From contig MEXP01000001.1 of assembly GCA_001773725.1 (NCBI GenBank), forward strand, positions 1-52,245: a stretch of DNA of 52,245 nucleotides. Direction: 5' to 3'. Source of the DNA: Candidatus Amesbacteria bacterium RIFCSPLOWO2_01_FULL_49_25 (lineage in GTDB: Bacteria > Patescibacteriota > Microgenomatia > CAZETR01 > Amesbacteraceae). Of the stretch, positions 121-9,458 are shown piece after piece. Numbering within the stretch: the stretch's first letter is position 1; each line of letters starts with the position of its first letter. The notes beneath the pieces were generated by a model. The model ran no database searches, was not told where the DNA came from, and saw nothing but the letters and a program-made list of their open reading frames with translations. The translations under genes and the position numbers were made by a program.

Positions 121-818
121 CATCGATAAATCCATTGTCGCCAATGGGATAGACTATACCTTTATCGCAAAATACTTAAAAGTTTTTGTGTGTTGTATTT
201 TCTTTTTCCAGAAGTATTCATCTTCACAGCCAGATTAATAATCTCTCTAATACTCGGTTTTCCTGCAATCTTTCGACATATATTCGAAAAAAGCAAAAAG
301 TCTTTATACTTAGAAGATTTTAATGGATACTTTTCAAAGAAAGGTATCACTTTTTCGTTAATCTCGCCCAAACTCCGAACTTCAAACTTTAAGGTCTTAT
401 CGCTCCTATCAGGCCTAATAGTTCCACAGTCCAAAGTTTTCTGAAATAACTCCAGAACCTCAGACCGATCGCTATTTTGACTGACAGAAAAACTTGGCCT
501 TACCTCAAGTTTGGTCTTCAATTTACTTCTGGGAGAAAAACTGACACAAAAGCTGCCTTCTCCGTCGGCGTAACCCGACAGGTACCAACAAACATCTTGA
601 AATACTGACGTCTTAGGCATATATGCCTCCAAAGTCTACGTGGACTTTGAGTCGTTACGGGGTCAATCCCGCTTAGCGGGACGACTTCCCTCGGTACTAC
701 CATCTTAATCCGAATAAAATACAAAGATCAAGAGGCTCCACCGATATGAGTCAGTGTTTACGGTGCACGATACACCGCGAGGCGTCCAGCCTCGAGGTCG
801 GGCTTGCTTCCGCCGCTT
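121..818 (-). mobile_element. Group I intron in 23S at E. coli position 1951 (L1951), carrying a homing endonuclease
   Basis: Splits UGUCGGGU|AAGUUCCGAC. The 5' exon ends in U, the intron ends in G (pos 121), IGS GCCCGAC pairs with exon GUCGGGU, and P7 is the canonical GACU/AGUC. Confidence 0.93.
162..632 (-). CDS. Single-motif LAGLIDADG homing endonuclease
   Basis: YLSGYADGEGSF motif and F-x-V-S-Q, I-CreI-like size (156 aa), located between the intron's P7 strands. Confidence 0.93.
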   Translation of the reverse strand: MEAYMPKTSVFQDVCWYLSGYADGEGSFCVSFSPRSKLKTKLEVRPSFSVSQNSDRSEVLELFQKTLDCGTIRPDRSDKTLKFEVRSLGEINEKVIPFFEKYPLKSSKYKDFLLFSNICRKIAGKPSIREIINLAVKMNTSGKRKYNTQKLLSILR

Positions 819-838
819 ACCCGACAAGGAATTTCGCT

Positions 839-1107
839 TGCTTTATCTTTACTGCATGTCGCCATGCAGACGCCACTATCTCTTTACCCCGATTTAATCG
901 GGGATGTCTGACGTATAGTGTGTGAGGATTTCCTTCGATTTCTCTCAGGATCTTTCCTGCTGATTAACTCCACCGTTCAGATTTTTACCATTTCTGGTAC
1001 TGTCGGATACTGAGTCTTTCCAGCATATAGTCAGATTTTTGTCTCCCTCTGCGGCAAACAGAATAAAAGACAGAGGTCTCTCGCCTCACTATGGCAGCGC
1101 ACATTCC
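839..1107 (-). mobile_element. ORF-less group I intron in 23S at E. coli position 1931 (L1931), with terminal A and a C:G pair at the G-site
   Basis: Splits CUAUGGU|AGCGAAAUU. Elements seen: P1 (GCCAUAG/CUAUGGU), P10 (CGCU/AGCG), P (AUAUGCUGGAAA), Q (AAUCAGCAGG), P3 (CUGAC/GUCAG), P7 (CACUA/UAGUG), P8 and P9 hairpins. Confidence 0.92.
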
Positions 1108-2585
1108 ACCATAGGATCCTTATAGTTAAGACCGCCATTCACTCGAGCTTAAGTTCAAGCCTCTCCCGAATAAATCGGGGTCAGCCATCCCCATGACTTA
1201 CGAGCATTGGGCAGGCCTCAGCCTGTATACGTTCGCTTACGCGTTTGCACAGACCTGTGTTTTAGTTAAACAGTCGCAGAGTAATCTTTTGCTGCGTCCC
1301 GACTGAGTCGGGAAGGACATCTCACTAGATTACGTCCAGCTTTTTTGCCGAGTTCCTTGAACTGCCTTCTCCCGATCGCCTTGGTCTACTCGACCACCCC
1401 ACCAGTGTCGGTTTGCGGTACGGCAAGAAACATGTCTCACTGCGAATATTTTCTCGCAAACAAAAACTGTCCCAGTTATCTCCAGACATTTGCCAGAAGA
1501 TTCCCCATCCCGCTCGATTAAACGCCAGCCCGCATTTCGCGGGGCCAACTATCTTACGGTCTAAACGCGCATTCACTGCACACGCTAGGAAGTTCTTACT
1601 CGTTCAATCCCCAGTTAATAACGACACGTCCCCTGTAGCCGAATATAAACGGCTCGTCCATCAGCTACCCCCGATTTAATCGGGACTCACCTTAGGTGCC
1701 GACTTACCCTCCGTCAAACAATGTAGCGGAGGAACCCTTGGGGTTTCGGCGGTCCGAATTCTCATCGGACTTACGCTACTCATTCCGGCATTCTCACTTG
1801 AAATCGCTCCAACCAAGCTTACGCCTGACCTTCACTGCAATTTCAACGCTCCCCTACCAAATGTCCTCGACAAAGTCGGGACAAGTCTGTCTCTTCGGCA
1901 AACAGCTTGAGCCTCGATTCATTTTCCGCGCCAGACTTCAAAGTAGACCAGTGAGCTGTTACGCTTTCTTTAAAGGATGGCTGCTTCTGAGCCAACCTCC
2001 TGGCTGTCTATGAAATTTGACATCGTTTCACACTTAGCTGTTATTTAGAGGCCTTAGAGGTCAATCTGGGTTGTTTCCCTTTAGAGCGGCCCGCTTAGCC
2101 GGGTCGTTCTGACTCCCTTTCCCAAAAACTTCCAATTCGGAGTTTGATTGAACAGTACAACTTGCGCTGCACAGCCCATCCAGTGCTCTACCTGAAAGTC
2201 CCGAAGGAAAGAGGCTATACCTATATATATTTCGGGGAGAGCCAGCTATCTCCTGGTTCGATTGGCATATTACCCCTAACCACAAGTCATCCCACAGATT
2301 TGTAACTCTGAAGGGTACGGGCCTCCCCCCGGTTTTCACCGGGGTTCACCCTGCTCATGGTTAGCTCACCAGGTTTCGGGTCTTCCATCCTGCACTAAAC
2401 GCGCTGTTAACACTCGATTTCTCTCCGCCTCCCCCCGACCTGCGGGGTTAGACTCGTGCAGAACGGAAACTCGCCGGATAATTCTTCAATAGGCACGCGA
2501 TCACCCTGAGCGGCTTTGCAGCCGAAGGGCTCTCACTGCTTGTTAGCAGACAATTTCAGGTTCTATTTCACTAGGTTTTCAACCC

Positions 2586-7558: not shown

Positions 7559-8740
7559 ATTCTCTCAGGTTCCAAAAAGTGGTGGGAAAAACAGCGCCGA
7601 GTCACTTTGACGTTTGTGACTTAGCCTGCCAATGTTGGTTGGTTTATTAAAGTGGCCGACCAAAAAGGACCACTGGGGTAAAAATACTCCTAGAAAGGAG
7701 GTGATCCATCCCCAGCTTCGGCTAGGGATACCTTGTTACAACTTAGCCCTCATCGCCGAGTTTACCCTCTTCCCGATTAAATCGGGACGTCAGGCACCCC
7801 CGACTTTGCTGGCTTGATGGGCGGTGTGTACAAAAGGCGAGAACGTATTCACCGCGGTCTGCTGATCCGCGATTACTACCAAGTCCATCTTCATGGGGGC
7901 GAGTTTCAGCCCCCAATCTGAACTGAGGGGTGTTTTGCTGGGATTAGCTCCGCCTTGCGGCTTGGCAACCCATTGTTCCACCCCATTGTAGGATGTGTGT
8001 GGCCCCAGATATAAGGATCATGCTGACTTGACGTCATCCCCTCCTTCCTCCCCGATAAATATCGGGGCAGTCTCCCATGAGTAATCAACATGGGATAGGG
8101 GTTGCGCTCGTTTCGGCACTTAAGCCGACACCCCACGGCACGAGCTGAAGACAGCCATGCAACACCTGTCCAGCACTTCACACTTTCGCGTGATTTTCCA
8201 TAGTTTCCTACAGAACATTAGGTACTGGATGTCAAATCTGGGTAAGGTCCATCGCTTCGTGTCGAATTGAACCACATGCTCCCCTGGTTGTGCGCCTTCC
8301 CGTCAATTCCTTTAAGTTTCAACCTTGCGGCCGTACTCCCCAGGCGGCCCGCTTCACGCGTTAGCTCCGACCCCTCCAAAAAAGGAAGGATCAAGCGGGC
8401 ATGGTTTACAGCTAGGACTACAGGGGTCTCTAATCCCTTTCGCTCCCCTAGCTTTCGTTCCTCAGCGTCAGTGCGGCCCCAGGTACCTGCCTTCGCCCTC
8501 GGTGTTCCTGACAATATCAACGCATTTCACTGCTACACTGTCAGTTCCAGTACCCCCTAACCGACTCAATCACGTAAGTTTTTCGTCCGGATCCGAGGTT
8601 GGGCCTCGGGCTTTCAAACGAAACTTTACGTGACGCCTACGAACTCTTTACGCCCAGTAAATCCGGATAACGCTCGCACCCCACGTATTACCGCGGCTGC
8701 TGGCACGTGGTTAGCAGGTGCTTATTCTACAGGTACCGTC

Positions 8741-9052
8741 CCCCTCACCTTTTTGCCAACAAACCGACACTTCTTTTTAACCTAATTTTTAACATTTGCA
8801 TTCCTTTGCCGTGATTTTTCAATTTTCTTTCACGATCTAGTGCATCTAAGTGTGATTTGTATCCCTCACAGTAAACTAATTCCCATGGGATATATGGTTT
8901 GGTAGCAAAACTTTGACCTTTATTGTGTTCTTCTAATCTTTTTTTTAAATTATCAGAATAACCAACATACCATTGGTCAAAATCCTTACTCCAAAGCATA
9001 TACACCCAATACATCAAATCTAGTTTACTAAATTTGGCAAAAAGGTGAGGGG
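8741..9052 (-). mobile_element. Intervening sequence in 16S helix 17 region (V3), bounded by a perfect 19-bp inverted repeat
   Basis: CCCCTCACCTTTTTGCCAA (8741-8759) and TTGGCAAAAAGGTGAGGGG (9034-9052) enclose an AT-rich ORF; no group I core seen. Confidence 0.85.
8745..9017 (-). CDS. Small GIY-YIG endonuclease
   Basis: YWVYML...WYVGYS..LKKRLEEHN...ALDRERKLK. Confidence 0.9.
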   Translation of the reverse strand: MMYWVYMLWSKDFDQWYVGYSDNLKKRLEEHNKGQSFATKPYIPWELVYCEGYKSHLDALDRERKLKNHGKGMQMLKIRLKRSVGLLAKR

Positions 9053-9458
9053 CTTCCCTGTCAAAAGGAGTTTACAACCCGAAGGCCTTCATCCTCCACG
9101 CGGCGTCGCTGCGTCAGACTTTCGTCCATTGCGCAATATTCCTAGTTGCTGCCATCCGTAGATGTACTGCCCGTATCTCAGTGCAGTTGTGGCTGACCGA
9201 CCTCTCAGTCCAGCTACCCGTCATCGCCTTGGTAGGCTATTACCCCACCAACTAGCTGATAGGAATTAGGCTCCTCCATCGGCGGCCAGTTACGGCCTTT
9301 TCCTACAAAGCTTTACGCAAAGTAGGATTATGCGGTATTAATTGGCCTTTCGGCCAGCTATTCCCCACCATAGGGTAGATTCCTAATCATTACTCACCCG
9401 TCTGCGACTGTCCGGTAGCCTCTTGCGAGATCACCGAACCGTTCCACTTGCATGCCTA

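Follow-up and report, generated by a model that had tools for sequence, protein, structure and literature searches.

A group I intron in the 23S rRNA genes of CPR bacteria pairs a transposed P7 base pair with a terminal adenosine and may splice with adenosine

The 23S rRNA gene of Candidatus Amesbacteria bacterium RIFCSPLOWO2_01_FULL_49_25, a tiny uncultured bacterium, is interrupted by a group I intron from which two near-universal features are absent, the G:C pair in P7 and the terminal G. In canonical group I introns, the major-groove edge of this G:C pair binds free guanosine, which attacks the 5' splice site, and then binds the last G of the intron itself for exon ligation. The resulting guanosine pocket is among the most conserved features of the class. 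In the intron described here, the pair is turned over to C:G and the last nucleotide is A, and both states recur together in relatives at the same rRNA position. We propose that the nucleoside pocket has been re-specified from guanine to adenine in a working self-splicing intron of the CPR 23S family, and we assign this reading a probability of roughly 0.6. The new point would be the match between the pocket and the terminal A, which may make this intron the first natural candidate of the adenosine-using kind.

The window, by which we mean the whole stretch of 52,245 nucleotides that was analyzed (contig MEXP01000001.1), belongs to a genome of 958 kb in 30 contigs that is 97% complete. The 5' two-thirds of the 23S rRNA gene occupy the first 3.1 kb of the window on the minus strand, where the gene is interrupted by the contig end, and a 16S rRNA gene lies farther along the same window. 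Compared with the bacterial model, the 16S rRNA gene has 298 additional nt inserted near model position 455 (window about 8680-9060, minus strand). The features of the 23S rRNA locus on which our argument depends are as follows.

839 to 1107, minus strand: group I intron of 269 nt, ORF-less (RF00028, 64.4 bits; both ends set by the intron-less allele)
1108 to 1114, minus strand: P1 5' strand, formed by the final 7 nt of the 5' exon (CUAUGGU), with U1108 in a U.G wobble (sequence; Rfam alignment)
1089 to 1099, minus strand: internal guide, consisting of CGCU (1099-1096, the P10 partner) and then GCCAUAG (1095-1089, the P1 3' strand) (pairing by eye)
1030 to 1035, minus strand: P3 5' strand UCUGAC, with its partner GUCAGA at 912-907 (RNAalifold consensus of alignment A1, with compensatory changes)
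916 to 922, minus strand: P7 5' strand CACACUA, with C922 at '262', A921 as the bulge and C920 at the consensus ligand-binding G ('264') (Rfam alignment)
886 to 904, minus strand: P8 hairpin UCCCCGAUUAAAUCGGGGU (Rfam alignment; RNAalifold)
873 to 878, minus strand: P7 3' strand UAGUGG, with G874 at the consensus C ('311') and G873 pairing with C922 (Rfam alignment)
852 to 869, minus strand: P9 hairpin, looped by GCGA, after which a tail of 13 nt (851-839) runs to the terminal A (Rfam alignment; RNAalifold)
839, minus strand: last nucleotide of the intron, A where G is usual (intron-less junction; DNA contigs)
819 to 838, minus strand: exon of 20 nt between two introns, its first four letters AGCG forming the P10 strand (sequence and intron-less allele)
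121 to 818, minus strand: neighboring intron (L1951 site) of 698 nt, ending in G121 (extent from intron-less relatives)

The insertion point lies between the rRNA letters GGU and AGCG, which we take to be position 1931 of the E. coli 23S rRNA. This numbering agrees with the CPR insertion sites 1917, 1931 and 1952 that are listed in the available text of Tsurumaki et al. (2024; PMC11270868). The 5' exon closes with ...CCUAUGGU, its final letter being U1108, and the intron begins with G1107 and ends with G841, C840 and A839, after which the 3' exon AGCGAAAUU begins at 838 (A838 G837 C836 G835). A first-pass annotation of the window had called this junction unambiguous and had the intron end in A, and both claims are borne out by a genome of the same family (G003, locus L005), in which an intron-less allele joins ...GGATCCTATGGT directly to AGCGAAATTCC... 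with identical exon letters. Since no alternative cut restores that uninterrupted rRNA, the intron spans 1107-839, and its last base is therefore A839. We rejected an alternative placement from the cmscan rRNA alignment, a 270-nt insert in a slightly shifted position, because it would alter three conserved rRNA positions.

The neighboring intron encodes a LAGLIDADG_1 protein at 162-620 (Pfam PF00961, 91 bits), ends in G121 and has a P7 that, read by eye, comprises GACU/AGUC with the usual G:C pair. A second RF00028 intron of the genome, on contig C10, likewise shows the canonical GAGACUA/AUAGUCC. The neighboring intron had been named as an internal control in the first-pass annotation, and both internal controls are canonical. 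An all-against-all BLAST comparison was used for the neighboring intron only, and it missed the intron at 839-1107 because the intervening 20-nt exon is too short. In some relatives (L041, L181 and others), a third intron lies 14 nt upstream, at the next site. With exons this short, the order in which the introns splice, and whether exons are skipped, comes into question.

The intron retains the architecture of its class. The match to RF00028 spans 852-1117 and covers the full model (1-253), its 64.4 bits comparing with a gathering score of 50 (E 9e-15). P1 forms between CUAUGGU and GCCAUAG, with the wobble U1108.G1095 at the 5' splice site, and the 4-bp P10 forms between AGCG (838-835) and CGCU (1099-1096), which lies directly 5' of the P1 guide. 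In an alignment of ten ORF-less introns with the C:G pair (A1), the letters of the core are invariant, and RNAalifold recovered P3, P4, P5, P5a, P6, P6a, P8, P9 and P9.1. Within this alignment of ten sequences, 38 of the 55 predicted pairs stay paired through changes on both sides; P7, which is invariant in A1 and pseudoknotted, was left out of the covariation score. The sequence, the Rfam alignment and RNAalifold thus all agree with the annotated intactness of P1, P10, P3, P8 and P9. Based on the kept group I fold and these compensatory changes, which point to selection on the fold, we conclude from comparative sequence evidence that the ten ORF-less C:G introns are working ribozymes. The C:G introns are located in the sole rRNA operon seen and at a highly conserved rRNA position, which indicates that their precise removal is required. 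The P8 letters CCCGAUUAAAUCGGG (886-904) recur in the 23S exon at about 1665-1685; P8-like hairpins occur in other introns, and several perfect 21-nt BLAST matches from other genomes land on the P8 part.

These observations bear on the possibility that the introns do not self-splice through their own pocket, and are instead removed with protein assistance, from a maturase or host factor, or excised without ligation, which would leave a fragmented 23S rRNA. Endonuclease-type ORFs occupy a loop in many relatives, and several kinds of insertions crowd the rRNA genes of CPR bacteria, according to the available text of PMC11270868, both of which speak for such a route. The intron at 839-1107 is ORF-less, however, and compensatory changes have preserved P1, P10 and the entire catalytic core. 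Taking these points together with the behavior of the pocket and the end base, described below, we consider protein-aided removal or fragmentation improbable.

Within P7, the Rfam alignment sets the 5' strand ...UCACACACUA against a consensus with G at the ligand column, and the 3' strand AUAGUG against AUAGUC. The pairs are C922-G873, C920-G874 and ACUA (919-916) with UAGU (878-875), and A921 is bulged. The transposition of the pocket pair at 920 and 874, which the first-pass annotation had noticed from the letters, is accordingly what the RF00028 alignment gives, and every coordinate that it gave proved right. Three odd bases in one assembly could in principle be assembly or sequencing errors, or mark a dead copy of the rRNA gene. 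DNA contigs from run X1 (98-1014) and run X9 (466-881 and 855-1014) show zero differences from the window and cover 839, 874 and 920, so that all three bases stand unchanged at the level of the sequencing runs; the two runs come from different studies, one of which may be the source sample. The letters CACACUA recur in 11 further loci, and the identical three states are present in 29 other distinct sequences, from genomes as well as metagenomes. The exons are identical to those of the intron-less relative, and the 23S and 16S genes score as full bacterial rRNAs. Recurrence in relatives together with the agreement of the DNA runs refutes the reading as error, and we give it, along with that of a dead gene copy, practically no weight.

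We surveyed the relation between the pocket pair and the last base in three sets of sequences. For an unbiased sample of the class, the intron was used as a BLAST query against 401 genomes, which gave matches in 94 and 93 contig regions for analysis, leaving aside about a dozen of the weakest matches (21-31 nt). The 3' exon motif was present in 67 copies, which divide into 32 intron-less and 35 intron-bearing copies at the site. A scripted reading of the 35 introns found a G:C pocket with terminal G in 23, a C:G pocket with terminal A in eight, G:C with A in two, A:U with G in one and G.U with A in one. The C:G introns come with two forms of P7: in one, which is that of the intron at 839-1107, C:G likewise makes up the neighboring pair and A or U is bulged, and in the other the neighboring pair is G:C and the helix is slightly different. 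One parse from this sample (L030) was faulty and was removed.

The second set came from a scan of 185,579 species genomes with a pattern that fixes C and G in the pocket and leaves the intron end free. All 11 loci recovered end in CA directly before AGCG, and six of the 11 are contigs already present in the class sample. The new loci are labeled WWE3, Collierbacteria and Saccharibacteria, in addition to bins labeled Pseudomonadales and Spirochaetia, and the 11 overall include lineages of the Microgenomates group. The Pseudomonadales- and Spirochaetia-labeled bins (L126, L127) contain an intron-rich, CPR-like 23S rRNA gene with the C:G intron and are probably mis-binned.

The third set was obtained from metagenomes with a pattern for the second P7 architecture in which both pocket letters were free (S:S), and comprises 80 loci (L131-L210) of at least 120 matches. 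Among the matches listed, 21 loci at the site have the C:G pocket, of which 19 end in A, one ends in U and one is truncated by the contig edge, and 17 loci at the site have the G:C pocket, of which 15 end in G and two in A. Counted as distinct sequences among the same matches, the C:G introns comprise 16 with A and one with U, and the G:C introns comprise 13 with G and two with A. The C:G pocket was confined to the site, as it occurs in 21 of 38 loci there versus 0 of 42 elsewhere among the 80 listed. All 42 introns with the same P7 architecture at other sites, five of them at the neighboring upstream site and 37 elsewhere, have G:C. The class sample agrees with this pattern: 104 of its 121 P7-like motif pairs retain G:C, and the lone C:G motif outside the site (L077) is a chance match in a coding region. 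Neither the class-sample motif pairs nor the 42 listed metagenome introns therefore include an intron at another site with a C:G pocket.

Pooling the three sets, one unbiased and two pattern-selected, with the metagenome part drawn from the 80 of at least 120 matches, gave 77 entries, or 75 distinct introns at the site once L065 and L103, whose exon motifs had matched loosely at other places in 23S, were dropped. Among the matches listed, the 30 distinct C:G introns end in A (29) or U (1) and never in G, and the 43 distinct G:C introns end in G (39) or A (4); the other pockets are one A:U with terminal G and one G.U with terminal A. Fisher's test of C:G against G:C among these matches gives p = 6e-15, with relatedness ignored. 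This is the covariation of the '264':'311' pair with the terminal base that the first-pass annotation had suggested looking for, seen in 29 of 30 C:G introns and 39 of 43 G:C introns among the matches listed, and its interpretation of the intron is supported by this comparative test at the level of sequence. The bases ahead of the terminal A are free to vary in the C:G group, where the introns end in ATA (11), ACA (8), GCA (3), TCA, CGA and others. If the pocket and end base were unconstrained, as expected for removal by a protein or for excision without ligation, both should drift, yet both are fixed and adjacent bases vary.

Coupling between the pocket and the last base is not strict. Four of the 43 listed G:C introns (L028 in G001, L056 in G145, L167 and L170) have the canonical pocket with a terminal A, and the C:G intron on one metagenome contig (L177) ends in U, the sole exception among the 30 distinct C:G introns listed. 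Two further introns at the same rRNA site have U at '311', and of these L069 (G212) has A:U and ends in G and L097 (G314) has G.U and ends in A, which places both outside a simple rule linking pocket and end base. L056 and L167 share their form of P7 with the second C:G group, and the tree described below pairs them. The G:C introns with terminal A may represent an intermediate state.

The existence of same-family G:C introns ending in A, 4 of 43 among the matches listed, speaks for a reading in which guanosine is still the first-step cofactor, the terminal A is tolerated, and the swap to C:G is a single accident that a successful mobile lineage inherited together with the A. A pair unable to bind G would, however, be expected to disable an intron located in an essential rRNA; the C:G lineage has instead diversified, reached several CPR groups and maintained its fold under selection. 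All 42 introns listed from elsewhere that share the architecture also have G:C, as do 104 of 121 motif pairs of the class sample, and reversion to a terminal G was found in 0 of 30 distinct C:G introns among the matches listed. Retention of guanosine thus strikes us as unlikely, with about one chance in five, and as the most serious competitor to re-specification of the pocket.

An intron tree also bears on this question. The tree was built from 61 introns at the site with the pocket and end base masked, and only 4 of its 58 inner branches were well supported. The best tree requires eight pocket changes, but only one of them is demanded by branches with good support. A tree constrained to keep the 26 C:G rows in a single clade had a slightly higher likelihood and was not rejected by the AU test (p-AU 0.55), as retention of guanosine after a single accident would have it, and the tree contains too few supported pairs for an independent-pairs test. 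Because one clade of C:G rows is not rejected, the statistics on pocket and end base may count one historical event many times, and based on this result and the poor tree support we claim no number of independent origins. The statement that we regard as safe, judging from sequence comparison, is that a flipped pair and a terminal A were acquired by a lineage, possibly a single one, and have been kept together through wide divergence and dispersal over several CPR groups.

The chemistry of the pocket suggests what the transposed pair would bind. In the guanosine pocket, as described in the accessible text of PMC2588497, N1-H of the ligand donates a hydrogen bond to O6 of the G, N2-H donates to N7 of the G, and O6 of the ligand accepts from N4-H of the C. 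Along the edge of a G:C pair, the acceptor O6 would therefore be followed by the donor N4-H, whereas along that of C920:G874 the donor, N4-H of C, would come first and the acceptor, O6 of G, second. With the pair turned over, the N7 contact would be lost, and adenine would match, since its N1 accepts, its N6-H donates and its C2 carries no group to be bound. A clash with the C:G edge would be expected for guanine. From these hydrogen bonds we infer that the C:G pair fits adenine and not guanine. A839, having changed in step with the pocket, would then be the nucleotide docked there for the second step, and we regard recognition of the terminal A by the pocket as probable. One pocket serves both steps, such that an adenine pocket would imply an adenosine nucleophile; the first-step nucleophile would most likely be an adenosine nucleotide (ATP, ADP, AMP or adenosine), which would end up at the 5' end of the excised intron. 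On the basis of hydrogen-bond complementarity and the engineered precedent discussed below, we favor adenosine or ATP as the first-step cofactor, with less assurance than we attach to recognition of the terminal A. The wider proposal, that a natural mobile clade of group I introns switched from guanosine to adenosine and that 23S rRNA maturation in its hosts consumes ATP or adenosine and leaves an A on the excised intron, seems to us slightly better than an even bet. Transcript data are confined to the exons: six RNA runs held small shares of the stretch, runs X15 and X18 covered exon parts only and left 847-1081 uncovered, and RNA contigs that join exon to exon carry the letters of other organisms beyond the junction.

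That a group I pocket can be re-engineered to take adenosine has been known since 1989-1991. A Tetrahymena mutant with a changed P7 pair reportedly prefers adenosine or ATP and is said to require replacement of the terminal G by A for ligation; the pair in that mutant is reportedly a transition pair and not C:G. To our knowledge, adenosine-specific group I ribozymes have so far been engineered only. The intron at 839-1107 resembles the mutant, as reported, in its altered P7 pair, its terminal A and the proposed use of one pocket for both steps. In contrast to that laboratory mutant, it is natural and belongs to a diversified lineage within an essential rRNA gene. The existence of the mutant, which the first-pass annotation had mentioned, is supported by passages in later papers (PMC3245953, PMC9971707, PMC4691833) that cite Been and Perrotta (1991; Science 252:434) for an adenosine-transferring Tetrahymena mutant and for one shared binding site. 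According to a passage of the review by Breaker (2022; PMC9971707), a change to adenosine acceptance "is not observed in nature"; the review treats this absence as part of the puzzle of why natural ATP-sensing RNA is unknown. The full-text literature searched, with subscription journals and supplements outside its coverage, contains no report of a natural adenosine-type group I intron.

The closest known natural relatives are the canonical CPR introns at site 1931, or '23IS7' (Tsurumaki et al., 2024; PMC11270868, available text), which share the site, the fold and the core letters. These canonical introns have the G:C pocket and end in G, many of them with LAGLIDADG genes, and 39 distinct ones are among the matches listed. 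The main text of PMC11270868, in the form available, has zero occurrences of guanosine or adenosine.

Loss of the terminal G has precedents. Cbu.L1917 of Coxiella burnetii reportedly uses a guanosine cofactor. According to the title of Raghavan et al. (2007), this group I intron of a bacterial 23S rRNA gene 'lacks the canonical omegaG'. It reportedly adjoins a second intron across a short exon, and its insertion site differs from that of the intron at 839-1107. The hexacoral mitochondrial intron ND5-717 is without a terminal G, yet its exons are perfectly ligated in vivo (PMC6545197, accessible text), a precedent that retention of guanosine with a tolerated A can also invoke. ND5-717 differs from our intron in being organellar, giant and back-spliced, and the accessible text of PMC6545197 reports no change in the pocket. 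The G:C relatives with terminal A resemble the ND5-717 type, in which the terminal G is absent and ligation is retained. Since ligation with a terminal A is known from ND5-717 and indicated by the Coxiella title, a terminal A alone is uninformative about the cofactor, and the C:G pocket found with it is what sets the present introns apart.

The matches listed provide about 30 distinct natural candidates for adenosine-type splicing. If our reading is true, these introns would be the first natural self-splicing ribozymes that use ATP, would complement G-dependent introns by responding to another nucleotide, and would offer naturally evolved sequences for A-dependent splicing tools, among them RNA end-labeling and circular-RNA production. 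It would also mean that RNA active sites switch substrate in nature through a coordinated three-base change, and would raise the question of why the switch is seen at a single rRNA site only. For the bacteria that carry them, such introns could couple ribosome production to the adenylate pool.
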